Assembly: GCA_014360015.1 (NCBI GenBank)
Contig: JACIYJ010000006.1
Location: 60,447-124,446, forward strand
Reading direction: 5' to 3'
DNA: 64,000 nt
Origin: Candidatus Aminicenantes bacterium
GTDB lineage: Bacteria > Acidobacteriota > Aminicenantia > Aminicenantales > Saccharicenantaceae
Below, one piece after another: positions 9,637 to 27,007 of this stretch. Both the position numbers and the translations under genes were made by a program. How positions within the stretch are numbered: the stretch's first letter is position 1; each line of letters opens with the position of its first letter. A model generated the notes under the pieces. That model saw only the letters and a list, made by a program, of their open reading frames with translations, was not told the origin of the DNA and did no database searches.

Positions 9637-12600
9637 TCAGAATTTGTATCTGACCGAGAACTTGAACACTCTGGTCGCAGAAATTCCAGTCACCCGACCA
9701 TAATTGTAGTCAATGGTATAAGTACCAACGTTAGTTCCTTCATCTGCTGGATACCAGGTACTAATCGGGTTTTCACCATAGTAAACATATCTGTTGCCAA
9801 ACAAGTTGTAGATATCAGCAAAAAGACCGATGGTGCCATAGGGAAGTTTGAATTCTTTCTCTATATGGAAATCAACATTGGCGGAATCTTCGGATCTTCT
9901 GCTTCCATTAGGTTCCAGACGAACCCAGACCGGCCAGGCCACGATGTTATGCTCTTCTGCCCAATCAGCAGGTGGAACGATGGTTACACTGCGAGCCCAG
10001 GGCGTACCCAGCTGATATCTCATAAAGAAGGAAGTTACAAAACCATAGGGCAGGTTAAAAGTTCCGAAAAGCTTGAACTGGAACGGAACATCATAGCCAT
10101 CTCGACCTGGTGCGTTCACGAAATCATTCGGACTGCCACCACATTCGAAAGAAGTAGTTTTTGAAATGACCACAGAACCACCTAAAGACCAACCATGAGA
10201 AAACCTCTTGTCGAACTGGAGTTCCAGGCCGTCATACTTTCTGAACTGTTCAGGTATGTTCATCTTCAGGTAAAAATTTTTCCAGTATGGTGAATCCTTA
10301 GTCATAAAATAAACTGTGACTTCTTGTTCTGGAAATACGCCATAAGCTGGAACTTTGGTGGTAAAGGGCACGTACCATTCAGGAGCCTGGTTGAGAGTAT
10401 ACCAGAATCTTTTTGTATCAGGATCATACTTTGCCCAACCATAGATTTTAGATTCTTTTTTATGGATGTAGTTCAACTTGACAGCGAAATCATTGAATAG
10501 CTGGTGCTCGATTCCAGCGACAATTTCATTATGGACTGGAGACCTTAAATTTTTATCAACTCTTGAGCGCAGATAATCCGGGTCGGGTCTGACGAACATG
10601 CCCAGACCCCAGCGAGGATCGTACCGGTCAATTCCTGGGCTATCTGGCTGGCCGTTTCCATTAAGGTCCCACCAGTTGAACTCATATTGAGCCATAACAG
10701 CCGGAGAAACTTCAGAGAACCACATAACCGGAACCTGCTCGGAGTAACGAGCATAGGAGAGTTTCAGAGCAGTTCGGCCATTACCAAAAAGGTCATAGCT
10801 GAAACCGATACGAGGAGAAACATCAGTAAACACCAGAACATCTTTTATAGGATCCATCTCAAAAGGTCCAAAGGGATTGAAGCCAAGTTCAGGCTCGAGC
10901 GTTTGGCCGATTTCATAAGGCAAGCCGGTAATCCCGGTGGATTTAGCCTTGCCGCCCCAGCCGTTGTAATGGTCAATCCTCAAGCCAAGGTTGACGGTTA
11001 ATCTGTTCTTGATCGACCAGTTATCCTGAAAATAGCCACCGATTCTATATTCCATTAGGTCCTTATAACTGTCGCTTCTTCCAGTCCCGCAGTTGGTAAA
11101 GGATAATAAACCGTCACCAAACTCTGGATGTGGTTCAGAAAGTCCGTAATATCCCCGATAATAATATGGGTTGCCGTTCCAGTAGTACCAGTTCATCGGG
11201 TTGGTCCGGGCATAAGCATACCTGTCCCAGCCAAATTGAAATTCGGCACCAGCACCGATCTCATGATCACCGCCCAGTAAATTATCCTGGAAATGAGTTA
11301 AGCGAACTGAAGCCTGGCTGGTGTGTCTGGTAATGTAGCTTTTCCAGGATTGAATACCATTCCAGATATAGCCAGTATAAAGGTCATAATAGCAAGTGTT
11401 TGCATCTGACTCTGGATGAGTAACAATCGGATAATCAAGATGGTTGAGGTTAATTCTAAAATCAATAAAAGAATTCTGGCTGACAATCCAGGTCAGATTA
11501 GCAGTTCCGACATATTGTTTGGGCTTGGCCATGAAGGTTGTTTCTTCTGTTTTTCTGGCCCAGGCTTCGAACATATTTTCTGATTGGGAATAGGAGAAAT
11601 AAGTAAAGAATCTCAAATTCTTAGAAAACTCAGTGGTCAGCTTCAGATTGCCTCTGAAATTCTCGCTCGGAACTTTGTACTGGTCATAATAAGTTCCAAA
11701 AATGGTTGTGGGAATAAATGGACTCCAGCGGCTGGCTTTGTAATAAGCAAAATCGGTAAAAAACCAGAGTTTGTCCTTGATTATCGGGCCACCGAGAATT
11801 CCAGAAGTGTCAAGGTTGTAAAGGTCAAAGCTGGGTTTGCCGATTTTCATGGCTTTCAGTTTTGAATCAGGGAACAGGACCTGGGCTAAATCTTTATTGG
11901 TATAATAGGCTTGAACTTGACCGGAAAAGGTATTCCCACCTGACTTAGTAACCACGTTAACAAAAACCCCTCCGGTGGTTCCGACTTGGGCTGGTAAGGC
12001 TCCAGTCACCACTTCAATTTCTTCAATCGCATCAAACTGAGGAGTACCAAAAGGACCACCCGTTGTCGGACAGTTGGCATTGATTCCATCTACTTCGTAA
12101 GTCACCCCACGCCAAAGGGTACCATGAACGCTGCCAGAATAAGTTGACATTGTGCCAACAGTAGCCGGGACCAGGGCCAGAACATTTGTCAGGCTCCGGT
12201 TGAGAGGCAATTTGGCAATCTGTTCAGAGGTAACGGCAGTGGTAACCTTGGTTTTCTGAACATCAATTTCTGGAGCCTTAGCCACAACAGTAACCTGTTC
12301 CTCGAGCGCAGCTGGTTCCATTTTGAGGTCCAGAGTCACAGTCAAACCCACTCTAACCACTACGTCAGTCAGGGTCAAAGTCTTGAATCCCTGAAGTTCA
12401 GCGGTCAGAGTGTAAGTGCCCGGCGGTATGGCCGGCAGACGAAAAGAACCATCCTCCCGGCTGACATCAGTCGCCTTACCCATCATGCTGGGACCGGAGA
12501 GAGTAATGTTAACTCCCGGCAGCGGGTTGCCATCAGTGTCTTTGATGACTCCGCGAACCGTACCGGTCTGACGGGTAATCTGAGCCTGGAGGACAGTAAA

Positions 12601-17216: not shown

Positions 17217-17247
17217 AAAGGGGGACAACTATGTCCCCCTTTTTTTT
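17216..17247. terminator. Bidirectional intrinsic terminator
   Basis: AAAAGGGGGACA-acta-TGTCCCCCTTTTTTT between convergent genes. Confidence 0.85.
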
Positions 17248-19471
17248 ATGGCCTTATTGACAGCGTGATCTTAAACACTCCTCGGTCGCCAACTGCATAG
17301 AAGCGGCTGGTTGGATCCCAGCGTCGTTCCCAGTTAGAGTTATAAATTAGATAGATGAAATTACCTGGCCTAACTTCCCAGCGGAAGCGAGCACTCCAGC
17401 CGAGGAGCCTGGAAACACTGTCATACTGGATATAATTCATAAAGCCCAGGTCAGGAGAAAAATAAAAATCGAGCTTCAACTGAAAAACATTCTCGTCGAT
17501 TTTGCCCTGCGGCAGTGTTCCCCGCACTATTTCTGTGTTGAATGACAGGTCAAGGTTGCCCCGGAAATGATAGGTCAAGCCGGCTGAGAGGTCGCCGTAG
17601 TGTCCTGAATAAAACTGACCAACAGTATAGCCGAGATTAAAGGATAAGGGACGATAAGGTGCGCTATTAAAATTCAGGCGGGCATTGGTAAAACGGTAAG
17701 GTCCGGCCGGCAGAACTGTTCCTGGAGCCACTTCAAAGTTATAAGGTAGCACATCGTAGTTGACGACCACATTGGCGGTGAATCTATCTCCTGTTTCGGT
17801 TCTAAAACTCAGCGGGGTAAAAGTTAGGCGGCGGGTTTCAAGGGTGCCATCCAGCTTCCAGTAAAAATCTCCGCTGGCCTGGAAGAAAAATTGCCTTATG
17901 AGTTTATCCAGCCAGCCCCTGGTCGGCCGGGGATTATAACCTAACTGAAGGTAGAAGGTCTGAATAGCTGGCCTCATCATGTAACCCAGGCCAGGATCAA
18001 GAGCATCTCCGTAGTAGGCATAGGTTGATTCTATGCTTATCAGGTCATTAGGATAATTGGCTCTAAAACCGAATCCCTGGTGCTGACCGGGCTTATCATT
18101 CCAATTGTAGGCAAACCAGGCCGCTAACCAGATGTTTTTATTTCCAGCAAAGCGCGAGCTGGCGTAATTAATATCAAAGCCTATAAGGCTATTTCTGGCG
18201 CCGGTGGGACTGCCGTTGGTGAGAATCAGGCCAATTTTGCTTTCAGAAAGAAAATCATAAGTTACCCGGCCGGCAAAAAGATTGGTCCGCGGCAGCGGAC
18301 CAAAGGGAGCCATTTCCATATCCATCATCGATAAGTTGAACTTGCCAACTTTCCCGTAGAGCTTGGCTCCAAAATCTATGGGCACCTGCTGCCCCTGGTA
18401 GAGTCCGATGCGGCGGCTAAAAAAGGGATAAAAGCTAATGCTGGAACTGAAATTGAAGGTCTCTGAGCCTTCCAGGAAAAACATTCTTTTTTCCGGATAA
18501 AAGAGCGGGAAGCGGGTCAGGTTTAGACGCCGGTCATCAACTTCGGTTTCAGCAAAGTCAGTTTTGTAGGTAAAGGCAGCAACCAGGTTGGGAGTAATAT
18601 TCTTGTAAATATCAACTCCGCCCTGGGTTTTCCAATGGTAAGTGCTGCCGGCCAGATGGTCGTTTTGGGCAGCAATCAATCCATAAGGACGAATCGTTAT
18701 GCCCAGCCCTTGTTCGATGTCTGAAATACCCACCAGCTCGGCAGCCATCATCGGGCTATTAAAATTAGCATCACGTGAGATTCCAGAAAGACGGATGATT
18801 TCTTGCTTGCGGGCAATATAGCGTTCGACGTTCAATCCCCAGGCTGGCAGATCTTTTTTGAAGGAAATGGTTTTAAAGGGGATTTTAATTTCAGCTGACC
18901 AGCCGTCATGAAGAATCTTAGCCCGACCTTCCCAGATGCCATCCCAGTTGAGGCTGGCGTCACCGCCGGAGACCAGGCCTTCACTGCGGGCACCTTTGGG
19001 GTTGATATAGAAAATGTAAGCAGTTCTTTTATTAAGAAATGGGTCAATAAGAATCCTGACTATGTCGTTAGCTGTACTGGCTGATTGCCTGATTCCATAC
19101 ATGCCTTGGCTTTGGCCGGTCTGGTCGTGGGCTAAGGAATTAGCAGCAATTTTCTTGGGCTCGCGGTCGTAGCAGTAAATTCCAAGATAGAGGTTCGATT
19201 CGTCGTAAAGGACACGCAGTTCGGTTTTCTCTGTGGGCTGAGCTCCGGGTGTGGGTTCAACCATCCTGAAATCAGTAAAAGGGACCGCTTCTTTCCAGAC
19301 CGGGTCTGAAAGCAGACCGTCAATCTGAGGTCCTTTGTCTACCCGGACCGCTCTGATTTTAACCGAAGCATTTTCCTGAGCAGCTGAAGACGGCCAGGCC
19401 CAGATGATAAGTGCTTGTGAGGTAAATGTTAACGTTCCAATGATTAAAATAAAATAGCCTTTTATCTTCAT
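17246..19471 (-). CDS. DUF5916 / CBM9-like outer membrane protein (start uncertain, up to 19540)
   Basis: GPQIDGLLSDPVW, WSAEIKIPF, DFAETEVD, FYPEKRMFFLEG, FFSRRIG. Confidence 0.8.
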   Translation of the reverse strand: MKIKGYFILIIGTLTFTSQALIIWAWPSSAAQENASVKIRAVRVDKGPQIDGLLSDPVWKEAVPFTDFRMVEPTPGAQPTEKTELRVLYDESNLYLGIYCYDREPKKIAANSLAHDQTGQSQGMYGIRQSASTANDIVRILIDPFLNKRTAYIFYINPKGARSEGLVSGGDASLNWDGIWEGRAKILHDGWSAEIKIPFKTISFKKDLPAWGLNVERYIARKQEIIRLSGISRDANFNSPMMAAELVGISDIEQGLGITIRPYGLIAAQNDHLAGSTYHWKTQGGVDIYKNITPNLVAAFTYKTDFAETEVDDRRLNLTRFPLFYPEKRMFFLEGSETFNFSSSISFYPFFSRRIGLYQGQQVPIDFGAKLYGKVGKFNLSMMDMEMAPFGPLPRTNLFAGRVTYDFLSESKIGLILTNGSPTGARNSLIGFDINYASSRFAGNKNIWLAAWFAYNWNDKPGQHQGFGFRANYPNDLISIESTYAYYGDALDPGLGYMMRPAIQTFYLQLGYNPRPTRGWLDKLIRQFFFQASGDFYWKLDGTLETRRLTFTPLSFRTETGDRFTANVVVNYDVLPYNFEVAPGTVLPAGPYRFTNARLNFNSAPYRPLSFNLGYTVGQFYSGHYGDLSAGLTYHFRGNLDLSFNTEIVRGTLPQGKIDENVFQLKLDFYFSPDLGFMNYIQYDSVSRLLGWSARFRWEVRPGNFIYLIYNSNWERRWDPTSRFYAVGDRGVFKITLSIRP

Positions 19472-19744
19472 AGCAAACTCGCTCGGCTGAAATCTTGGTT
19501 CTTTTACCATGGACCCGGTAGGATTAAAATTCCGGGTCAAGTGGAAGAAGCTTGCTCTTTTGGAGCTTTTTATCTTCCAAAAAAATTTTGCTTTGAGTCA
19601 GGGTTTGATTTTAGCTTTTTTTGCGGGGGCTGGCAACATCTTTGCGAGCGTTGGTAACATCTCGAATTGCCTCTTTTAAATCATAGGTGAAAATGACTCG
19701 TTACCACACGTTGCAATTAGACTAAGTTTCGCTGCAATCCCTTC

Positions 19745-20140
19745 TTAATAAGAGGTCCTATTCCTACTCCTAACCATTCTTGAATATGCCTGATATCTTC
19801 TATGTCTACAAGCTGGATTTTTAACGTAAAGGCAATCTCGCATTTTTTTGATGATTGGTTCTTCAAATTTAACCAACTTAAGGAATTTGTGGTTTGTTCT
19901 ACTAAAAAGGTTAGTTGTTAATGGAAAAATTGGAATTAAATCTGATTCAATCGATTTTACATATGTTCAATATCCGTTAATTATTAGTTTATGGTACTTA
20001 TATTGATTCAAGACTGGTTGCAACCAGCCGTCGACTAATATTAAACGTGACCATCTTTTTTTGTTCCAAAAATAGTAATTTTCTTCTTGTTTTAAAAATG
20101 TTGCTCCGATGATAGTATAATTTTTTCCTTCGAAAAACAT
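19745..20140 (-). pseudogene. Second ORF of the array-1 cassette: 57 aa to TGA (19967-19969), frame stays open 73 more codons into the terminal repeat
   Basis: RBS AAGGAGGT, then MFFEGKNYTIIGATFLKQEENYYFWNKKRW...NGY*TYVKSIESDLIPIFP...; manual translation. Confidence 0.55.
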
Positions 20141-20152
20141 GTTTACCTCCTT

Positions 20153-20470
20153 TTAAGATTTTTTATCAGATTTATTATCCCGATTACCGTTATGATAATC
20201 GAGATTGCAAGGTTCAGACATTTTCCTAAAAAGCTCATTCCATGCACGTTTAAATTGTTCATTGTGATTAACTCCTTCCTTGATATGGGCAAGTTCGTGT
20301 GATACTATATGGGCAAATGTTTTGATTGAATTTATCTTATTCCAGTTAACAACGATAAGCCTTTCTTCAGGGAAGCAAATGCCTTTAATTTCATTCTTTA
20401 AAGGAGTTATCAATATACTCCTCGCCCCAATAGCTCTTGCAAGTTTTAAAATAGTTTTTAGTCTTATCAT
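20153..20470 (-). CDS. Small HExxH zinc-metalloprotease-like protein (SprT/WLM/YgjP-like) inside CRISPR array 1
   Basis: RBS GGAGGT; motif HELAHIKEGVNHNEQF; lies between two repeats. Confidence 0.75.
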   Translation of the reverse strand: MIRLKTILKLARAIGARSILITPLKNEIKGICFPEERLIVVNWNKINSIKTFAHIVSHELAHIKEGVNHNEQFKRAWNELFRKMSEPCNLDYHNGNRDNKSDKKS

Positions 20471-21346
20471 AGTTTGACCTCCATAAAAGATTTGAGAATC
20501 GGATCCCGTTGAGTCGCAACCCCTTCTTAATAAGAGGTCCTATTCCTACCGAAGAAACAGCAAAGTTCAGATTCGAGGATGAGGAGTCGCAATCCCTTCT
20601 TAATAAGAGGTCCTATTCCTACCTTGTAAGAAAGGCTGGATTTTTCGATATTTACTTCGAGTCGCAATCCCTTCTTAATAAGAGGTCCTATTCCTACAGG
20701 AGTTAAAAGAACAAATTGCCAGTTTAAAGGGTCGCAATCCCTTCTTAATAAGAGGTCCTATTCCTACAGGGAAGAGGAGCTGGATTTACAACTTGGATCT
20801 ATGTCGCAATCCCTTCTTAATAAGAGGTCCTATTCCTACCTTCAGCTTTAGGAAAGTCCGGTCCTCAGAAGGGTCATGTCGCAATCCCTTCTTAAAAAGA
20901 GGTCCTATTCCTACTCAGGATGCTGCTGTATAATTACGGCGGCTGGTTGACCTGTCGCAATCCCTTCTTAATAAGAGGTCCTATTCCTACAGGGAAGAGG
21001 AGCTGGATTTACAACTTGGATCTATGTCGCAATCCCTTCTTAATAAGAGGTCTTCTTCCTACGAAAAGAGATATTGGCTTATTTCCTCGTCCCCTGGCGT
21101 CGCAATCCCTTCTTAATAAGAGGTCTTATTCCTACTCGATGATGTTGAGGAAGAAGAGTGGAAGGAAATGTCGCAATCCCTTCTTAATAAGAGGTCCTAT
21201 TCCTACAAAAGGAGGTAGAAAAATGGAAAAAGTAAGGATGTCGCAATCCCTTCTTAATAAGAGGTCCTATTCCTACTTAAAGGCGCGTATTATAGAATTT
21301 TGTTTTTTAGTCGCAATCCCTTCTTAATAAGAGGTCCTATTCCTAC

Positions 21347-21456
21347 TGCGAGCCTTTATAACTTCTTTATTATCAGCGCAATACAAGCCCCCTTGTCCAA
21401 AATTTTTGTTCCTCACAATGTTAACAAAGAAACATTTCAGAAACGTTTCTTTTTTG
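21347..21456 (-). promoter_or_regulatory. Leader of array 1
   Basis: About 110 bp nearly identical to 25887-25995; contains the operator at 21426-21452. Confidence 0.85.
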
Positions 21457-21568
21457 CTATTCATCCCGATCCTCCAAAATTCGCCTCATAGGCTCCAATT
21501 AAAATAAAAATAACTAATCAATGCCTTCTCCCCATTCTATCACCACTTTTCCAATATTAATTTCATTC

Positions 21569-21853
21569 TTAATCATCGTCAAGGTAAATCCAAACTCCGG
21601 CTGGCACTTTTTCTCCCTGTCCCATGGCTATAGACTCAAAATCCGCCAGTAAAGGATAAATCCTGACGTCATCCTCTTTCTCTTCAATCATCTCACCTAA
21701 CTGCCTGTAGAGCCTTTTCAACTCTTCAGGTGAGAGTGCAAAATAAAACACTGACTTCTGAAGGTGTATCCCTTTGCCTTTTAAAAACCGGTGTACACGG
21801 TTTAGTCTTCGCTCATCCTTTATGTCATAAGATACTAAATATACGGATTTCAT
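21569..21853 (-). CDS. cas2: CRISPR-associated endoribonuclease Cas2
   Basis: YLVSYDI..RRL, LQKSVF, DDVRIY. Confidence 0.93.
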   Translation of the reverse strand: MKSVYLVSYDIKDERRLNRVHRFLKGKGIHLQKSVFYFALSPEELKRLYRQLGEMIEEKEDDVRIYPLLADFESIAMGQGEKVPAGVWIYLDDD

Positions 21854-22662
21854 ACCTTAAGCTCCTTGATGAGGTAAAAGAAATCATCTATTACTTTATT
21901 TATTTGATTATCGAGTTCAGACCTTTTATTTTCAAAGCGATGGATTATATTTCTATAGCCGTCACTGGTCAAATAGACTCTTTCCCCGCATTTTTGCACA
22001 AATCGGCTATAATTAGTTTGTTTAAAGAAAAGAATAACCTGCTCATCAATCTTCGCTTCAAGAAGATAAACCAGATCCAATACAAAACCAAAATTTACTC
22101 GCCTGAAATATGCTCCAGTATGAACATCAAGCCCGGCCTTAATCAGATTTATGGTTATTAGACCTTTCAATAGAAAGCTAACTACATCCTTTACTACCCG
22201 AGTTAAATATTTATCTCTGGGTATAAGTTTAGCCAGCAAAACTTCATAATCTCCCTCACCAAGCACATTGCTATTTCTCAAATAGGGAAAATATTTTTTA
22301 AGCAGCCGAAGCTGCAAACACATCCGATAGGCTTTTAGCCATTTTATGTATTTAAAGAGATTAATAGCATTTTCCAGAATAATTCGTTGTTCCTTGAAAT
22401 GATTTGCCAATTTGTGATTGAAAGGCAACAAAATGGCTATATCTTCTCCGGAATGACGGCTGACAATTAACGGAATATTCTGCTCAGCTAAAGCCAGCAT
22501 TGCCTCGCTTGAAATCTTTATGTTCCCTATCACATAAACTCTATTTATCAGCCGGAGCGGAACTCTTTGCCCAGCCTTCATCGGTTTCTGAATCCAGAGA
22601 GAAGGACCATCAGCGGTAACCTCAATATTTTCATTATCAACAAGATAAAGGCTCCTATCCAT
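21850..22662 (-). CDS. cas1: Divergent Cas1 paralog, probably catalytically inactive
   Basis: Cas1-like N-terminus (RVPLRLINRVYVIGN) and GLD.H.G region; lacks the GFxH His and the DLxE Glu. Confidence 0.7.
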   Translation of the reverse strand: MDRSLYLVDNENIEVTADGPSLWIQKPMKAGQRVPLRLINRVYVIGNIKISSEAMLALAEQNIPLIVSRHSGEDIAILLPFNHKLANHFKEQRIILENAINLFKYIKWLKAYRMCLQLRLLKKYFPYLRNSNVLGEGDYEVLLAKLIPRDKYLTRVVKDVVSFLLKGLITINLIKAGLDVHTGAYFRRVNFGFVLDLVYLLEAKIDEQVILFFKQTNYSRFVQKCGERVYLTSDGYRNIIHRFENKRSELDNQINKVIDDFFYLIKELKV

Positions 22663-23599
22663 TCAACAACCTCCTGGCTAAGTTTTGAACATATGACCTC
22701 CAGAGCGGTCTTTTTTCCCTGGCCCATTCTTCATAATGTCTAAAATATTTTTCACGACTCTTCTTTTTCAAAAAGCAACCATCCTGACCACCTGACTCTG
22801 AGCGAGTAAAATCATCCTCCTTAAACTCTCTTTCTCTAAATAAATTAAACACAAACCTGTCGGCATCTGCTCGAAAGGCCTCCACTAAGTCACACGCCAG
22901 TGATTCCCGTCCATATTCAAATGAATGGTAAAAGCCAATGACGGGATCGAGACCTATCAGTTCAATTTCTCTTACCAGCTCAAAATGAAGAAGGGTGTAA
23001 GTAAGGGACAAAAGAGCATTAACCGGATCAACCGGAGGTCTCCTTCTTCTGCCGGCGAAATTCAATGATGGCGGGAAAACAAGAGTCAGAGCCTTAAAAT
23101 AGCAGTTGGCAGCGCTTCCTTCCAACCCTCGAATAGAGTCAGGACTGTCTGCCTCTTTGAGTTGATTGCAAATAAATTCCATAGATTGAATGGAGCTGGA
23201 GATTTCAGATTTAAATTCTGGCCTCAAATCTTTCAGTTCAGCCAGAAACTCAATCTGTTTTTTCAGCTTTGCTTCCATTAGTTCTCTGGAAAAAATTAAG
23301 GTAAAAAAACTGAGGCTTTTCTCGTATTGTTTAACCCTAAGTAAACCATTATTATGAAGACGTCCATGGAGTATTCCTCTAAAAGCCAGTCGTCGACCGG
23401 ATAAAAATATTACCGCTATGTTGTTTAAAGCCAGTCTGTGCAGGACGAGAGTTTCAATCCTGACGTTTCCTATTATTACAACTCTTTCTAAAGGCTGGAG
23501 GGGTGCAGAGCCTTCACGATTGCCTTGGCAATAGAAAACCAATGAATTACCTTCTACTTTGATTTCTATATCCTTGCGGTCAATGTAAAGGCTTCCCAT
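22655..23599 (-). CDS. cas1: CRISPR-associated endonuclease Cas1
   Basis: RGLEGSAA, RRPPVDPVNALLSL, GFYH, LACDLVEAFR; start moved to ATG 23599. Confidence 0.95.
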   Translation of the reverse strand: MGSLYIDRKDIEIKVEGNSLVFYCQGNREGSAPLQPLERVVIIGNVRIETLVLHRLALNNIAVIFLSGRRLAFRGILHGRLHNNGLLRVKQYEKSLSFFTLIFSRELMEAKLKKQIEFLAELKDLRPEFKSEISSSIQSMEFICNQLKEADSPDSIRGLEGSAANCYFKALTLVFPPSLNFAGRRRRPPVDPVNALLSLTYTLLHFELVREIELIGLDPVIGFYHSFEYGRESLACDLVEAFRADADRFVFNLFREREFKEDDFTRSESGGQDGCFLKKKSREKYFRHYEEWAREKRPLWRSYVQNLARRLLNG

Positions 23600-23612
23600 T
23601 TTTATAAACTCC

Positions 23613-23897
23613 CTAACTGATATAAAAATAGGATGGGTCGCGAGGCAAAAGAGCGATCCCAAGGATCAAGGTCCTGGCTCGTCTATCAACTTGAAATATG
23701 TGCACCCTATCACTGTCCTCATCTATCATCTCCTTTAACTCCTCAATGACATGTGATAATTCAGCCTCAGTTAGAAAACATTCGTAAACTGATTTTTGCC
23801 CACCTGTGCTGTAGCCTTTTAAAAAATTCCGGACTTTGTTTAACCTTTTATCTTCGGTTATATCATAGGCAATCACATAAAAAAGCCGAGAACCCAT
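23613..23897 (-). CDS. cas2: CRISPR-associated endoribonuclease Cas2
   Basis: YVIAYDI, GGQKSVYEC, DRVHI. Confidence 0.93.
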   Translation of the reverse strand: MGSRLFYVIAYDITEDKRLNKVRNFLKGYSTGGQKSVYECFLTEAELSHVIEELKEMIDEDSDRVHIFQVDRRARTLILGIALLPRDPSYFYIS

Positions 23898-23969
23898 CTT
23901 TTCACTCCCGGCGTAGACTATTTACAATCTCCTGATTTAATAATCACACTGGCTGACTAAATAGGCAAC

Positions 23970-23998
23970 AAAAGAAACATTTCAGAAACGTTTCTTTT
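23970..23998. promoter_or_regulatory. Operator upstream of cas2-cas1-cas1'-cas2
   Basis: AAAAGAAACATTTCAGAAACGTTTCTTTT, just upstream of minus-strand TTGCCT-N17-GATTAT. Confidence 0.75.
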
Positions 23999-24137
23999 CG
24001 AAAAAGAGAGGACATTGGAATGATTAAAACAAAACTCGAGTGTAACTTATATTTTATTTTGTTTTTAAGTGGGTGAGCGCCTTGGTGCGGTCTTATGGGT
24101 GTGGCCGGAGATTAAATTTCCAATATTTTTAGCAGAT

Positions 24138-24170
24138 AAAAAGATAGAAGGCTTTTACCCGGTCTTCTAT
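24138..24170 (-). terminator. Putative terminator of the array-2 transcript
   Basis: ATAGAAG...CTTCTAT stem followed on the minus strand by CTTTTT, just past the terminal repeat. Confidence 0.55.
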
Positions 24171-24208
24171 TGTCATATTGCTTTCTTATTCTGAGGTCCT
24201 ATTCCTGC

Positions 24209-24416
24209 TCAATGGAGAGTTATCATGGGCAATCCGTCAACGTCTTTGTAATATGAGTAATTGCCTTTAGTGAAGACCAAGACCCTTCTGGGTGTTGGTC
24301 TTATAAATAATATTGTTCCTTTTTCTTCCACGTAAATAGAGCCTTGTATTGATCTAAATGGTCCACTAAAAAAATAAAAAGCCATAACACCAATCATTTA
24401 TGCTTAGGTATGCCAT
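24209..24416 (-). pseudogene. Small hypothetical gene in the array-2 cassette, either frameshifted or a 62-aa ORF from 24397
   Basis: RBS GAGGT plus ATG 24416 (MAYLSINDWCYGFLFF) joins the SGPFRSIQG...ITLH frame if one base of the A7 run (24368-24374) is removed; TGA abuts the repeat. Confidence 0.55.
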
Positions 24417-24419
24417 TTT

Positions 24420-24491
24420 TTACCTCTTTTTTCTAAGTTTTGCGATAAAACAAAGTAATAAAAAGATCCAAATTAAAATTTCAATCATCAT
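24420..24491 (-). CDS. 23-aa single-transmembrane peptide in the array-2 cassette
   Basis: RBS AAGGAG; MMIEILIWIFLLLCFIAKLRKKR*; manual translation. Confidence 0.6.
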   Translation of the reverse strand: MMIEILIWIFLLLCFIAKLRKKR

Positions 24492-25886
24492 ACATTCTCC
24501 TTTAAGGTTTTGAAGTCGCAATCCCTTCTTATTCTGAGGTCCTATTCCTACGAAGGCGCCCCAGGATTTGGGGTGCCATTTTTCAGTCGCAATCCCTTCT
24601 TATTCTGAGGTCCTATTCCTACCATTTTTCAGAGGGTCTTTTAGGTGTAGTAAGAATGATTTGTCGCAATCCCTTCTTATTCTGAGGTCCTATTCCTACT
24701 GAAAGGTTGGCAGGTTATTTTGTTGATTTGAGTCGCAATCCCTTCTTATTCTGAGGTCCTATTCCTACTGCGAACGGGGAAGAGAACCGGCACTTTGCCG
24801 GTTGCATGTCGCAATCCCTTCTTATTCTGAGGTCCTATTCCTACGAAATTTTCTTTTTGAAATAGCAAGTAGGGATAACAGTCGCAATCCCTTCTTATTC
24901 TGAGGTCCTATTCCTACTTTGGTTTAGGGTGGAAGGCGCTCCAGGATTTGGGGTCGCAATCCCTTCTTATTCTGAGGTCCTATTCCTACTAGGAAATTAG
25001 AAGATTATTTTTATTCCATGAAAAGTCGCAATCCCTTCTTATTCTGAGGTCCTATTCCTACTGGGGTGCCCTTTTTCCGTGGTAGTTTCAGGTGTACGAA
25101 GGTCGCAATCCCTTCTTATTCTGAGGTCCTATTCCTACTCATTTTCGTTGAAAAAAGGTGGGTGGGCCAAGGGAGTCGCAATCCCTTCTTATTCTGAGGT
25201 CCTATTCCTACTAAAAATGACAAAATAATTCGGGATTATTGTGATCGTGGTCGCAATCCCTTCTTATTCTGAGGTCCTATTCCTACGTAGAAGTTGTAGC
25301 TTCTGGATTTGCTATCTGGCACTTGAGGTCGCAATCCCTTCTTATTCTGAGGTCCTATTCCTACGGACCCTGTACTCGAGAAAATTGCTCGGGCTGCTGG
25401 GATTGTCGCAATCCCTTCTTATTCTGAGGTCCTATTCCTACAAATGGCAGCCACGGGAGATGCGACTCGTCTCAGAGTAGTCGCAATCCCTTCTTATTCT
25501 GAGGTCCTATTCCTACGAAAAAATGAAGGTTAAAGTGATAAGGATTGATGAAAGGTCGCAATCCCTTCTTATTCTGAGGTCCTATTCCTACAGGGAACCG
25601 TATCCTCATATTGCCGTCGGCGATGAGGGTCGCAATCCCTTCTTATTCTGAGGTCCTATTCCTACGAAGGTGAACTAATATAAGAAGGAAAAAGGCAGTG
25701 GAAGTCGCAATCCCTTCTTATTCTGAGGTCCTATTCCTACTCGCCCAAGATTGCGACAATAGTGCTAAAGCTGGTTAGTCGCAATCCCTTCTTATTCTGA
25801 GGTCCTATTCCTACTCGTTAAAACGTGGTGGGTGGTGTCGTGGATGCCTGTCGCAATCCCTTCTTATTCTGAGGTCCTATTCCTAC

Positions 25887-25995
25887 CGCGAGCCTTTATA
25901 ACTTCTTTATTATCAACGCAATACAAACCCCCTTGTCCAAAATTTCTGTTCCTGACAATGTTAACGAAGAAACATTTCAGAAACGTTTCTTTTTC
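25887..25995 (-). promoter_or_regulatory. Leader of array 2
   Basis: Homologous to leader 1; operator at 25967-25992. Confidence 0.85.
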
Positions 25996-26014
25996 AACCA
26001 TACTGATGTCTCTC

Positions 26015-27007
26015 TCATTCATTTTTTGAATCTACAATCTGATATTTACCCAGTCCAAAAGATGTTCCTTTACCTAAATGAAAAATCTCTCCCGCTTTCA
26101 ACATAGGCATAAAGCCAGAGATTTGTCCCCTGTAAACAACCCTGCCAACAAGCCCTCCGAGTTTCATCCTCACTTTTTGTCTGTGAGAATATCTCTCCCA
26201 ATCTGACCACTTAGCCTCATTCTTTTCGAGTCTCACCGTTCTGGCTCTTTCTATCAATTTTTTGTGATTCCATTCAGGTTCTTTATTTTCTCCGTGATAA
26301 AAATTAAGTAGAGCCAACCTTCTCATCAAATTAGTTATTAAAATATGAAACTCAAGCTTAGTAGCAAACTCTCTTTGGTACTTTATTCGGACAGGGGTTT
26401 TTAGTTCCAGCTGTAGCTCTTCTTCATCTCCACATCCACTCTCCTCTCCGCCCAGCTCATAGGGCTGATCTGAAAAATCTCTCTCTGGAACTTCAATCAT
26501 TCTATGAGCAGGTGGCTTTAATATTCGGGTTTTTCCATCATAGACAGGTTCCCCCGTAATTTCTACTTTTACTAATTCATACCTGCCACGTCCCTTTCCG
26601 ATACCTAACTCGCCAAGATATTCAAAGGCCATAATAAAATAAGGCAAATAATCTATTGCTTTCCCGATTAAAATCAGAACGAAAGAAATCTCAGATCCTG
26701 GTTCGTATAGCGGACGGGTTTCTTCTGGTGGCTCAATGACAAACGGATGCGGAATTGTTTCATACTTATCCATATTAAAAACTGCCGGGCCTTGAGGGGC
26801 CGGGGTTTCAAAAATATAAGCATAAGGACATTCCCGGACAATGGGACAATCCCGGCAATCTTTATTTCTAAAAACACAGATCACTTTTTTGAAGGCATTT
26901 CCAAAGCCGCCTCTGAAGGTAGATCCTTTGTACGGAGGAAGGTAGATAGGTTCCAGCGCCCGAAGGAAGAAGTCCAGTTTCTGATACTTAATAATCATTT
27001 GAAACAA
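26015..27007 (-). CDS. cas6: CRISPR precursor RNA endoribonuclease Cas6
   Basis: GSTFRGGFG, C-x-C cluster, C-terminal HLGKGTSFGLGKY glycine loop. Confidence 0.93.
   Translation of the reverse strand: MFQMIIKYQKLDFFLRALEPIYLPPYKGSTFRGGFGNAFKKVICVFRNKDCRDCPIVRECPYAYIFETPAPQGPAVFNMDKYETIPHPFVIEPPEETRPLYEPGSEISFVLILIGKAIDYLPYFIMAFEYLGELGIGKGRGRYELVKVEITGEPVYDGKTRILKPPAHRMIEVPERDFSDQPYELGGEESGCGDEEELQLELKTPVRIKYQREFATKLEFHILITNLMRRLALLNFYHGENKEPEWNHKKLIERARTVRLEKNEAKWSDWERYSHRQKVRMKLGGLVGRVVYRGQISGFMPMLKAGEIFHLGKGTSFGLGKYQIVDSKNE

Follow-up and report, generated by a model that had tools for sequence, protein, structure and literature searches.

Repeat-bounded, apparently foreign coding cassettes in the terminal slot of two type III-A CRISPR arrays

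Background

In the type I modules CreTA and CrePA, as set out in sections of a 2025 review and of a preprint (Shmakov et al. 2023), the repeats enclose CreA, a guide of normal size, through which Cascade represses the promoter of a toxin gene lying outside them. According to the section of the review on these modules, type I-B is so far the only type in which CreTA has been clarified; whether similar modules exist elsewhere is raised there as a question. The locus described here, in a 64,000-nucleotide window of DNA from a Candidatus Aminicenantes bacterium (contig JACIYJ010000006.1), shows some likeness to them: small cargo lies in a CRISPR-cas locus beside degenerate repeats, it may be proposed to do harm if the cell loses its effector or the effector is inhibited, and its form in one diverged strain (leader, repeat, cassette, degenerate repeat) is similar to a mini-array. 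However, the coding DNA itself takes the place of the spacer here, the system is type III and there is no guide-promoter match; therefore, any gating would act on RNA. The same preprint, in its main text, describes standalone repeats and mini-arrays in which a degenerate distal and a proximal repeat enclose a non-defence unit, as is also the case here. These units have spacer-sized inserts and regulatory guides and belong mostly to types I and V-A; protein-coding intervals find no mention in the main-text passages on them, individual loci being given in the supplements.

Mobile elements also enter arrays. The published passages on PhiAP1.1 of Streptococcus pyogenes put on record a whole prophage that integrates into CRISPR repeats and disrupts crRNA production. 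The cassettes share with PhiAP1.1 and with IS insertions the foreign DNA within an array, which can be repeat-flanked, but they are 0.3-0.75 kb long, fill exactly one spacer slot, lie in the sense orientation and carry no transposase, integrase or terminal inverted repeats.

Integron cassettes are promoterless, tightly trimmed ORFs, bounded by recombination sites and held at a fixed site behind a resident promoter, with IntI and attC. The ORFs reported here likewise have no promoter detected by a consensus scan, are repeat-bounded and lie downstream of a leader. In contrast to integrons, there is neither an IntI-type recombinase nor attC (the only ORFs between the two arrays are cas1 and cas2), CRISPR repeats serve as the bounds, and each array has one cassette.

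Results

The arrays and their terminal repeats

By a repeat scan, array 1 (20513-21346) has 12 repeats and 11 spacers, and the repeat adjoining cassette 1 (20513-20549, minus strand) has A>G at base 1 of the 8-nt tag; array 2 (24515-25886) has 19 identical 37-nt repeats (no mismatch in 19 of 19) and 18 spacers. Both are on the minus strand, as are their leaders (21347-21454 for array 1; 25887-25994, 108 nt, for array 2). Several observations indicate that the arrays are transcribed from this strand: the right-most repeat together with the 108-nt leader (145 nt; 25850-25994 versus 21310-21454, family D6) is 94% identical between the arrays, the repeat in its minus-strand reading has the 3′ end ...GGGATTGCGAC, the degenerate repeat copies form the left ends of both arrays, and every cas gene is encoded on the minus strand. 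Between the arrays lies the adaptation module (21569-23897, minus strand), consisting, according to Pfam matches, of cas2 (23613-23897), cas1 (22655-23662), a degenerate cas1′ (21850-22662) and cas2′ (21569-21853). A palindromic motif (family D7) is found in each leader (21426-21453 and 25966-25993), and its third copy (23971-23998) lies upstream of this cas2-cas1-cas1′-cas2 operon, in the same place as in genomes G003 and G005. Judging from sequence and position, this third copy is likely an operator or promoter element. Elsewhere in the genome from which the window was taken, an IS21 is located inside another array, in mid-array.

The first-pass annotation reported an extra repeat past the apparent end of each array, keeping the central variant of its own array, and this is borne out. 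The terminal repeat of array 1 (19731-19767, minus strand) differs from the array-1 consensus at 2 of 37 positions, confined to the last bases of the tag, and keeps AATAA. It lies about 380-400 bp from a conserved 764-aa gene, and in G003 and G005 the arrays end at this same distance from the gene. The degenerate terminal repeat of array 2 (24172-24208, minus strand) has 6 of 37 mismatches and keeps ATTCT; in the RNA sense its 5′ 26 nt are intact and its 3′ 11 nt have diverged. Since a copy with at most 12 mismatches turned up in only 1 of 2200 trials with shuffled repeats, the extra repeats are not due to chance. The intervals that they enclose, re-measured with the same result, are 745 bp and 306 bp long, against 32-41 nt for the ordinary spacers of both arrays.

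Cassettes and their ORFs

Cassette 1 (19768-20512, minus strand), in the terminal spacer slot of array 1, matched nothing outside G000 among 41 genomes except through the repeats. Its first ORF, c1orf1 (20153-20470, minus strand), encodes a minimal HExxH zincin metallopeptidase of 105 aa; GGAGG precedes its ATG, which lies 42 nt past the upstream repeat. The protein gave weak Pfam matches to YgjP-like and WLM, as well as a phrog_87 match. Three relatives were found at E <= 1e-3 among 1.84 billion representatives, and a phylum sample of 401 genomes yielded nothing outside G000 but four weak matches in longer frames. Over the HExxH...H..F core, the family profile (3 members) aligned with the 110-aa protein MJ1213 (PDB chain 4qhj_A; E 1.3e-4). 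This alignment with a solved structure over the catalytic core argues that c1orf1 is a real gene. The second ORF, c1orf2 (19967-20140, minus strand), encodes 57 aa and has AAGGAGG upstream; a search for relatives found none. Behind its in-frame TGA (19964-19966) the frame is open again for 73 codons to 19745, inside the terminal repeat, and the pieces of runs X3 and X7 that cover the TGA region list no difference there.

Cassette 2 (24209-24514, minus strand) occupies the corresponding slot of array 2. Its first ORF, c2orf1 (24420-24491, minus strand), encodes a hydrophobic peptide of 23 aa (GRAVY 1.31) with a basic C-terminus; the ATG lies 23 nt past the repeat, with AAGGAG 6 nt upstream. The second, c2orf2 (24209-24397, minus strand), is a 62-aa ORF that contains a 13-bp hairpin (24273-24302) and ends at the border of the degenerate repeat. 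Just ahead of it is a 16-aa ORF with GAGG. Protein-family searches gave no match for either c2orf1 or c2orf2. The clear ribosome-binding sites (RBSs) that had been ascribed to the cassettes are present for three of the four named ORFs; c2orf2 has no Shine-Dalgarno sequence within 18 nt, and on sequence grounds its coding status is uncertain. The ORF scan agrees with the earlier distances from repeat to first ATG, and the last ORF does end at the repeat in array 2 (24209) and run into it in array 1 (to 19745), there past the in-frame TGA. Given this TGA in c1orf2 and the missing Shine-Dalgarno sequence of c2orf2, the cargo may be partly decaying or non-coding.

Both cassettes have a GC content of 32% compared with 45% for the genome, and neither has a second genomic copy. 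The sister species G003 has neither cassette, though its arrays end at the same places. Searches of the borders and of protein families agree with the first-pass annotation that terminal inverted repeats and transposases are absent, and they found no integrase remnants either. All named ORFs lie on the minus strand like both arrays and are thus, as had been claimed, sense to the leader-driven transcript. A consensus scan, which is a weak test, revealed no minus-strand terminator and no minus-strand promoter-like site fit to serve the cassette genes, and the first start codons, only 23 and 42 nt past the repeat, leave scant space for one. The description of the cassettes as promoterless therefore stands as far as such a scan reaches; expression from the leader would follow from their position. 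None of the public runs holding the cassettes is on record as RNA.

Junctions and strain comparison

The repeat-cassette junctions called for confirmation from sequencing data, and they are present in contigs of four public runs (X1, X3, X5 and X7) from four studies. In X1, one contig extends over 19739-20549 (repeat, cassette 1, repeat) and another over 23262-24551 (cas1, cas2, degenerate repeat, cassette 2, first regular repeat). X3, from a different study, holds both cassettes with zero differences. X7 holds cassette 1, in contigs that reach into the flanking repeats. X5 holds cassette 2 in a diverged strain, where leader 2, one repeat, cassette 2 and the degenerate repeat follow one another without ordinary spacers. 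This cassette shows 0 differences in 365 nt, compared with about 2.2% in the listed flanking pieces; about 8 would be expected (Poisson P near 3e-4). In X7, the cassette differs at 4 of 604 positions and the neighbouring cas genes at 62 of 2483, summed over the listed pieces, whose divergence is mosaic.

Terminal slots of related loci

A census covered 157 related type III loci found through Cas1 of the adaptation module, which is why every surveyed locus has this module. After redundancy was removed, 44 arrays had 1 kb or more of sequence downstream; in 9 of these, an interval longer than 100 nt is closed by a repeat-like copy (10 of 45 if the L061/L171 family, left out by de-duplication, is included). 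All these intervals are in or adjoin the last units, at or near the trailer end; of 2105 internal spacers, none exceeds 83 nt. Four intervals are RBS-led coding cassettes (two in the window, one each in L015 and L020), so the layout recurs beyond the window. In G005, a 133-bp terminal interval contains an RBS-led hydrophobic ORF of 28 aa (GRAVY 1.59). In L020, a Nitrospira III-B array, a 758-bp interval contains a SprT-like gene of 127 aa, above the Pfam cut-off (27.9 versus 25.6 bits), and an ORF of 65 aa whose product is hydrophobic at its start; the start codon is 57 nt from the repeat. Between the SprT-like gene and a copy outside any array, dN is 0.19 and synonymous sites are saturated. 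Other slots hold an IS5-like pseudogene (L083), a MITE-like repeat that occurs a second time in its locus (L090), a truncated 23S-rRNA-IVS-type gene fragment (L061 family) and fossil arrays of 1-5 decayed units behind the insert. The position is therefore, in part at least, a general sink into which inserted DNA collects. The suspected bias towards sense ORFs is present in all 6 of 6 inserts with recognisable ORFs (two in the window, L015, L020, the L061 family and L083).

Of the four coding cassettes, two encode minimal zincins: c1orf1 and the L020 gene, which are remotely related (hhalign probability 86.9%, E 4e-6). With 105-127 aa and HExxH followed by a conserved H..F, they are similar to known minimal zincins such as SprT-like, YgjP/DUF45 and WLM proteins and MJ1213 of Methanocaldococcus (PDB 4qhf-4qhj), but identity is low and no known member is reported from inside an array. 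We take MJ1213 to be the protein called 'selecase'; its PDB listing reads uncharacterized protein. Three of the four coding cassettes have a short ORF with a hydrophobic start (23 aa in the window, 28 aa in G005, 65 aa in L020). Behind a strong RBS, c2orf1 and the G005 ORF each encode a hydrophobic peptide of a single helix with a basic tail; these peptides presumably resemble the named toxins of type I toxin-antitoxin systems. Unlike these, they have neither an evident antisense RNA antitoxin nor a family match.

Discussion

The reading that we favour, and to which we would give about an even chance, is that a permissive terminal slot has retained the cassettes as foreign mini-operons, whose transcription starts at the leader. 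Each is a short, AT-rich stretch of foreign origin, fitted exactly between the last regular repeat of its type III-A array and the old, degenerate repeat at the end. It would form the 3′-most unit of the leader-driven pre-crRNA, and its genes, with their own ribosome-binding sites, would be expressed through array transcription. Inserted DNA survives in this slot because no useful crRNA is lost and one flank is a degenerate repeat, and in this repeat family small mobile DNA gathers there again and again. The cargo resembles the accessory or selfish genes that mobile elements carry. By their sequences, the proteins are most likely small toxin-like, immunity or counter-defence hitch-hikers and not parts of an immune mechanism. 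The cassettes proposed by the first-pass annotation thus hold up as real, repeat-bounded, sense-oriented and recurrent, with the reservation that IS, MITE, fragments and fossil arrays collect in the same slot. A purely permissive slot does not by itself account for the sense orientation in 6 of 6 inserts, the zincins in 2 of 4 coding cassettes or the unchanged cassette 2 in X5.

A mis-joining of the cassettes to the arrays at repeats during assembly is hardly credible. De Bruijn contigs do break at repeats, so that no single listed contig covers a whole array; yet the X1 contig runs from cas1 through the degenerate repeat and cassette 2 into a regular repeat, the X5 contig links cassette 2 via one repeat to leader 2, and contigs of X1 and X7 carry cassette 1 into its flanking repeats, the runs coming from four studies. 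It is rather unlikely, if by no means far-fetched, that the cassettes are neutral debris. An insert somewhere in the array would have made the downstream units useless; these would then have been deleted by repeat-repeat recombination up to a poorly recombining terminal repeat, leaving a silent or decaying remnant whose ORFs have no importance. Insertions into arrays do occur, as the IS21 of the same genome and the prophage in S. pyogenes repeats illustrate, and the IS5-like pseudogene, the MITE-like repeat, the truncated gene and the fossil arrays look like stages of decay, to which the TGA in c1orf2 and the lack of a Shine-Dalgarno sequence in c2orf2 may be added. Against this, c1orf1, c1orf2, c2orf1, the G005 ORF and both L020 ORFs are complete, tightly fitted between repeats and all sense to the array, with no ORF cut at a border except possibly the c1orf2 tail. 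Moreover, remnants of mobile-element machinery and terminal inverted repeats are absent, and the cassettes vary less between strains than the cas genes, as in X7 with its mosaic divergence.

Alternatively, Cas1-Cas2 of the unusual cas2-cas1-cas1′-cas2 set could have inserted a long fragment at the repeat of a young array in an integron-like manner; later spacers being added on the leader side, the cassette would then be the oldest 'spacer'. Both borders match full repeat ends as those of a spacer do, the cassette is always at or adjoining the oldest position and is the only 'spacer' behind the leader in the X5 strain, and the same adaptation module accompanies all surveyed loci, which were selected through its Cas1. 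Nevertheless, we regard this origin as very doubtful: the intervals are 4 to 20 times as long as the 32-41-nt rule would have them, all other spacers of arrays 1 and 2 are normal-sized, random fragments are not expected to give complete genes at both borders, and the IS and MITE inserts in the slot need no Cas1-Cas2. Theoretically, the cassettes may also be Cas-gated guard modules, a protein-coding type III counterpart of CreTA/CrePA. Cas6 would cut the cassette mRNA from the pre-crRNA with an 8-nt tag, on which Csm would load; the loaded Csm would shield the RBS together with the start codon, and trimming would remove the 3′ portion. The membrane peptide or zincin would be made only in cells that have lost Cas6/Csm or in which an anti-CRISPR blocks it, and such a cell would be stopped, resulting in addiction or abortive infection. 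In cassette 2, cassette 1 and G005, RBS and start lie about 24-43 nt from the cleavage-derived tag, within the part that a Csm complex would cover while type III-A crRNAs mature. The hydrophobic-start ORFs in three of four coding cassettes and the mini-array-like unit of the X5 strain, with cassette 2 unchanged amid diverged flanks, are consistent with such a guard, and the relevant section of the 2025 review leaves CreTA-like modules outside type I-B as a question. We nonetheless think a guard unlikely, because the L020 start lies too far out for a mature crRNA, the cassettes are recent and patchily distributed (G003 has none and G005 a different one) and the same slot of other arrays holds plain junk. 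RNA folding at the repeat-to-RBS junctions is no better than in shuffles (z -0.14 to 0.78), and transcripts that escape loading would still be translated, a difficulty for any potent toxin unless the partner ORF is an antidote.

Conclusions

In both type III arrays of this genome region, the place of the oldest spacer is taken by foreign DNA with genes that appear ready to be translated. The cassettes could have hitch-hiked there as cargo, or they could be a safeguard of a new kind that is linked to CRISPR.

The type III-A locus and its two arrays

A complete type III-A locus lies on the minus strand of the window, as judged from gene-family matches, in the order csm6, cas10/csm1, csm2-csm5, a Csx1-like CARF gene, cas6, array 2, cas2-cas1-cas1'-cas2, array 1 and a 764-aa gene. 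Repeats with unique spacers, a leader and nearby csm effector genes are all present, as expected of a type III-A CRISPR. In a repeat scan, array 1 has 12 and array 2 has 19 regular repeats of 37 nt. Both arrays are read on the minus strand, because the leader end is duplicated, the repeat in minus sense has the 3' end ...GGGATTGCGAC, degenerate repeat copies stand at the left array ends, and the cas genes are on the minus strand too. The duplication (family D6) comprises the 145 nt from the right-most repeat, 94% identical between the two arrays, and consists of that repeat plus a 108-nt leader containing a 28-nt palindromic motif (family D7).

The 28-nt near-palindrome, AAAGAAAC.TTTC.GAAA.GTTTCTTT, occurs at 21426-21453, 23971-23998 and 25966-25993, that is, in both leaders and before cas2-cas1-cas1'-cas2. 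It is kept at the same places in the related genomes G003 (a sister species) and G005 (loci L009 and L011 noted), and similar motifs follow the arrays of loci L074, L106, L161 and L181. An operator or promoter element common to the arrays and the adaptation genes, which would couple their transcription, is suggested. The adaptation module (21569-23897) has two cas2 and two cas1 genes. The family match of the second Cas1 (270 aa) is confined to N-terminal residues 7-99 (Pfam E 4.8e-13). A 273-aa Cas1-like ORF (10938-11759) also directly follows Cas1 in the type III-B locus L020, and in most collected loci the arrays start about 1.2-2.5 kb past the Cas1 match, which would fit a module of the cas2-cas1-cas1'-cas2 type.

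Three array 2 spacers (24552-24585, 24918-24952 and 25062-25101) overlap one another, with single-base differences, and seem to share a single target region, with a GC-rich hairpin and a T-run. Array 1 holds the same spacer at 20768-20802 and 20991-21025, inside a duplicated 109-nt block (copies 98% identical). The 764-aa gene (17246-19540) follows array 1 on the array strand, and this synteny is kept in G003 and G005 at about 75% DNA identity. Array transcripts might read into it, since a consensus scan found no minus-strand terminator between the array 1 terminal repeat and the gene.

Two cassettes closed by terminal repeats

The first-pass annotation had described an extra repeat past each array, carrying that array's own central variant and enclosing 745 bp (cassette 1, 19768-20512) and 306 bp (cassette 2, 24209-24514), against 32-41 nt for ordinary spacers; the repeat scan confirms all of this. 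On the minus strand, the terminal repeat of array 1 (19731-19767) has 2/37 mismatches and that of array 2 (24172-24208) has 6/37, with the first 26 nt in RNA sense kept and the last 11 lost. In both, the central variant is that of the own array.

The junctions were checked in contigs of four public sequencing runs from four studies, compared with positions 19300-26100; the pieces are listed in part and the figures are rough. In X1, probably the source sample, one contig (19739-20549) joins the terminal repeat, cassette 1 and the next repeat, and another (23262-24551) joins cas1, cas2, the degenerate repeat, cassette 2 and the first regular repeat. X3 gave pieces of both cassettes with zero differences. 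The contigs of the four runs thus exclude an assembly artefact at the junctions, for which read mapping had been proposed. In X5, a diverged strain, a 510-nt contig runs from leader 2 over a single repeat into cassette 2 and on through the degenerate repeat for 22 bases more, so that cassette 2 can be the sole 'spacer' behind its leader.

Between strains, the cassettes are more alike than their surroundings. X7 has cassette 1 with 4 of 604 nt different, against 62/2483 in its other listed pieces. X5 has 0 differences in 365 nt over 24150-24514, against 72/3234 elsewhere; by rough arithmetic on the listed pieces, about 8 differences would be expected in this stretch (Poisson P near 3e-4). This suggests that the cassettes have recently spread or been swept between strains. 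The listed pieces of X5 do not cover cassette 1 and those of X7 do not cover cassette 2, which does not imply absence. One X1 contig has an extra 32-nt spacer between two repeat copies at 21099-21137, from which it follows that the X1 population is polymorphic for array 1 spacers. No RNA data set containing the cassettes is on record among the public runs; X1 and X6 are labelled metatranscriptomic but are rated as probably DNA, and their depths carry no inference on expression.

Both cassettes have 32% G+C, compared with about 40% in the cas genes and 45% in the genome, where each is present in a single copy. In cassette 1, c1orf1 (105 aa, minus strand, with HELAH) has its ATG 42 nt past the repeat, preceded by GGAGG. 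Its stop is followed after 12 bases by AAGGAGG and then c1orf2 (57 aa, minus strand), the frame of which, after one in-frame TGA, stays open for 73 codons into the terminal repeat. In cassette 2, c2orf1 (23 aa, minus strand) starts 23 nt past the repeat with AAGGAG ahead of its ATG, and has a hydrophobic stretch followed by KLRKKR (GRAVY 1.31). A 16-aa ORF with GAGG ahead comes next, and the last, c2orf2 (62 aa, minus strand), ends exactly at the degenerate repeat. Clear ribosome-binding sites had been claimed for both ORFs of each cassette; this is right for c1orf1, c1orf2 and c2orf1 and wrong for c2orf2, which has no Shine-Dalgarno sequence. The cassettes were also said to be free of transposases and terminal inverted repeats, and inverted-repeat and family scans indeed found none at their borders; neither was there any transposase or defence-family match within them.

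Other searches gave little. An Rfam scan returned weak CRISPR-DR8 matches to two repeats and nothing else, and PHROGs and PADLOC gave nothing useful on homologues of the cargo. Read through with X, c1orf2 had no relative in a word-index search. The search of phage and plasmid sequences suggested earlier left cassette 1 DNA and c1orf1 unmatched, except for one plasmid match at E 0.9. Among the spacers of the collected loci and of the source genome, the only match to the cassettes was one 18-nt word, in L122 and L125 (E 0.016). The short, hydrophobic c2orf1 has the peptide features of a type I toxin; for an antisense RNA to it, the antisense strand showed weak promoter-like sites, outside the cassette, and no Rfam match.

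Whether or not the upstream repeat was included, the repeat-to-RBS junctions folded no better than shuffled sequences. In the predicted fold of unprocessed RNA, GACCUCU of the repeat can pair with GGAGGUC at the first ribosome-binding site of cassette 1; this was discounted, for any Shine-Dalgarno sequence would pair with a repeat containing CCUC. The repeat directly upstream of cassette 1 (20513-20549) has an A>G change at the first base of the 8-nt tag, which is the predicted Cas6 cut site.

A small zincin in cassette 1

The features of a zincin are found in c1orf1, namely HELAH and then N-H-N-E-Q-F, aligned with HELLH...YHINEF of MJ1213. Its Pfam YgjP-like score is 20.3 bits, below the cut-off of 26, so it cannot be assigned to a particular Pfam family; a match to WLM is likewise below cut-off. 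A word-index search with c1orf1 returned only the query itself, and a HMMER search of 1.84 billion representative sequences gave three relatives. Two of these (70 and 101 aa) have HExAH...HNxxF...W.E; the third, a repetitive 818-aa protein, was taken as spurious. The three-sequence profile of the family matches the solved 110-aa MJ1213 over the catalytic core (E 1.3e-4). On these motifs and profiles, c1orf1 is a putative minimal zincin.

A second zincin stands in a comparable place in L020, an array with type III-B effector genes in a Nitrospira MAG. Its 758-bp interval comprises about 40 nt, AAAGGAGGAGG, a 127-aa gene and an overlapping 65-aa ORF with a hydrophobic start. The 127-aa gene is over the Pfam SprT-like cut-off (27.9 against 25.6 bits), and its family can be aligned with that of c1orf1 (hhalign probability 86.9%, E 4e-6) over 43 columns of the catalytic core. 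In L093 there is a copy that does not lie in an array and has the ribosome-binding site and gene alone in common with it. The gene appears to be under constraint, since dN between the two copies is 0.19 with synonymous sites saturated. Of 317 genomes of the order to which the L020 MAG belongs, 8 have relatives of this zincin, at 10 places in total, and the L020 copy alone is in an array; the family is therefore not tied to arrays. The others adjoin toxin-antitoxin and AbiE-like ORFs (named by eye) outside arrays. In IMG/VR no relatives of either zincin family were found, and a single repeat-pattern match there, inside a high-GC phage gene, was taken as chance.

Array ends in related genomes

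Across 41 related genomes, cassette DNA was found in the source genome alone, all remaining matches being to repeats. Of the other 86 genomes in the family, three (G003, G005 and G013) have close relatives of the Cas1 of this locus (at least 58% identity). In G003 the genes stand in the identical order and neither cassette is present; the distance from its array ends to the 764-aa gene is about 400 bp, and to the palindromic motif ahead of cas2 about 45 bp. The array 1 terminal repeat of the window lies at the same distance from the 764-aa gene as the G003 array end, which indicates that this repeat is the ancestral array end and that cassette 1 occupies the oldest spacer slot. From the motif to the last regular repeat of array 2, the window is about 470 bp longer than G003 and G005; this surplus is made up of cassette 2, the degenerate repeat and about 125 bp that match nothing in them. 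An X1 contig leaves the window sequence at 23994, which points to an array 2 border near 23994 that differs among strains.

At the position of cassette 1, G005 has a different interval, of 133 bp, ahead of a degenerate repeat. It holds AGGAGG, an ATG 24 nt past the repeat, a 28-aa hydrophobic ORF ending in KKYGN and a short GC palindrome, and its first 86 bp recur in the metagenome contig L104.

For a wider survey, loci were found by Cas1 alignment, 77 from species genomes and 80 from metagenomes, from Aminicenantes, Nitrospirota, Thermodesulfovibrionia, Syntrophorhabdus, anammox bacteria and others. The repeats of all of them end in GGGATT(G/A)(C/A)GAC. Arrays with fewer than 3 repeats of at most 4 mismatches and loci without a detectable array were left out, as was an artefactual row splitting array 1 under the array 2 consensus. 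There were 92 arrays, of which 86 were non-redundant after removal of 6, and 44 had at least 1 kb after the last good repeat. A long interval was defined as more than 100 nt closed by a further repeat-like copy with at most 12 mismatches. Such an interval is present in 9 of the 44 arrays, or in 10 of 45 when a Syntrophorhabdus family (L061, L171, L172 and L175), which falls outside the 44 (661 nt downstream in its representative), is added by hand as the tenth. With shuffled repeats, a repeat-like copy appeared in 1 of 2200 trials. The long intervals are always in the last array units, with at most 2 recognisable units behind them or, in L140, five decayed ones, and none of 2105 internal spacers exceeds 83 nt.

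The contents of these intervals differ. RBS-led coding cassettes account for four of the ten: the two in the window, that of G005 (L015) and that of L020. The Syntrophorhabdus interval has a truncated four-helix gene of the 23S-rRNA-IVS type, that of L083 an IS5-like transposase pseudogene, and that of L090 a MITE-like element, of which the locus has another copy. The intervals of L090b, L140 and L047 either mark the border to an older array or lack clear content; L140 and L090b were rejected as gene cassettes, their long intervals being borders to older arrays with diverged repeats. L141 was rejected too, its RBS-led ORF 21 nt past the last repeat being a frameshifted larger gene with no distal repeat. 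The expectation that related arrays would have long intervals with sense ORFs was borne out: all six ORF-bearing intervals are sense to the array.

In the Syntrophorhabdus family the terminal 292-bp interval and half a repeat stand in tandem at least 3 times (L172, 8490-9400; also L061, L171 and L175), each unit starting a four-helix gene of the 23S-rRNA-IVS type that is cut short. A GC-rich hairpin (GCACGCC....GGCGTGC) and purine-rich short repeats lie directly past the last repeat in the Nitrospirota arrays L045 (3855-4300), L037, L046, L178 and L179, followed by a full or truncated four-helix-bundle gene of the same type on the array strand, with no distal repeat recognisable. In the source genome itself, an IS21-type element of 2.5 kb, on the opposite strand and with IstA-like and IstB-like ORFs (named by eye), interrupts an unrelated array (L183, contig C30:101775-104361; 84 + 68 repeats), and the repeat where it inserted is truncated. 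The remaining arrays of that genome, on C1 and C4, have ordinary ends.

Origin and possible role of the cassettes

The cassettes are foreign, intact at their repeat borders and common to several samples. They are on the transcribed strand, with good ribosome-binding sites, in the slot in which this repeat family collects inserts. They would be transcribed as the last unit of the pre-crRNA, because they share the strand of the array, have their first start codons 23 and 42 nt from the repeat and, in a scan for consensus sequences that is a weak test, showed neither a terminator nor a serviceable promoter-like site. Their terminal position may have arisen in two ways. An insertion anywhere in an array would make the older units behind it useless, and repeat-repeat deletion could then remove these units down to the terminal repeat; arrays in which one to five decayed units still follow the insert resemble steps in such deletion. 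Alternatively, the cassette may be the founding unit, with spacers later added in front, and the X5 form fits this option.

There is about an even chance that the cassettes are cargo or hitch-hiker genes which sit in a permissive slot at the array end and are driven by the leader, and it is unlikely that they are silent debris. Integron-like capture by the adaptation machinery had also been considered. Of that earlier interpretation, real, repeat-bounded sense cassettes, seen in other genomes too, have stood up; capture gained no direct evidence, and uptake by Cas1-Cas2 as an oversized spacer is highly improbable. The locus has no IntI or attC, the ORFs in and between the arrays matching Cas1, Cas2 and Cas6 families alone, and no attC-like imperfect inverted repeats were found at the cassette ends. 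IS elements and MITEs differ from the window cassettes, which have no transposase, no terminal inverted repeats and a single copy in the genome; IS-like or multi-copy features are present in the related inserts of L083 and L090.

A further possibility, itself quite improbable, is that the cassettes guard the CRISPR system. Being made only as part of the pre-crRNA, their mRNAs would survive or not depending on Cas6 cleavage and loading into Csm/Cmr with 3' trimming, so that a membrane peptide or a minimal protease would be released upon loss or inhibition of the effector. This would be an RNA-level, protein-coding type III counterpart of CreTA/CrePA, and it may spread between strains by repeat recombination. 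It would fit the ribosome-binding sites, which fall in the stretch of transcript that would be under a Csm complex, the repeated finding of short hydrophobic ORFs, and the X5 form, which resembles a mini-array. However, the distribution of the cassettes is patchy and recent and junk occupies the same slot elsewhere, both of which speak against a dedicated system. In CreTA/CrePA of type I, according to the accessible text, a spacer-sized guide lies between degenerate repeats and Cascade represses the promoter of a toxin gene outside them. Here, in contrast, it is the coding DNA itself that the repeats enclose, next to a type III-A effector; the cassettes therefore lack the defining features of CreTA/CrePA.

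Foreign DNA in arrays and cargo in CRISPR loci are already known in kind, and integration of a prophage into the repeats of a type II-A array is on record, from the accessible part of one report. In the literature, as partly covered without supplements (that of a mini-array preprint may matter), protein-coding terminal-spacer cassettes are undescribed. It is doubtful that they are something categorically new. Pipelines for array annotation stop at the last regular repeat and would miss terminal cassettes. If expression depends on Cas6 and the effector, type III systems would have their first described guard or addiction modules, acting by a mechanism other than the promoter repression of type I. 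Whether other CRISPR types have guard modules is a question raised in the accessible text of a 2025 review. The design is simple: leader, one repeat, RBS-led ORF and degenerate repeat, and the minimal form occurs naturally in one strain. Even as mere hitch-hikers, the cassettes show that inserts land repeatedly, and with a strand bias, at the trailer end of type III arrays, where foreign genes can borrow a strong, constitutive promoter.
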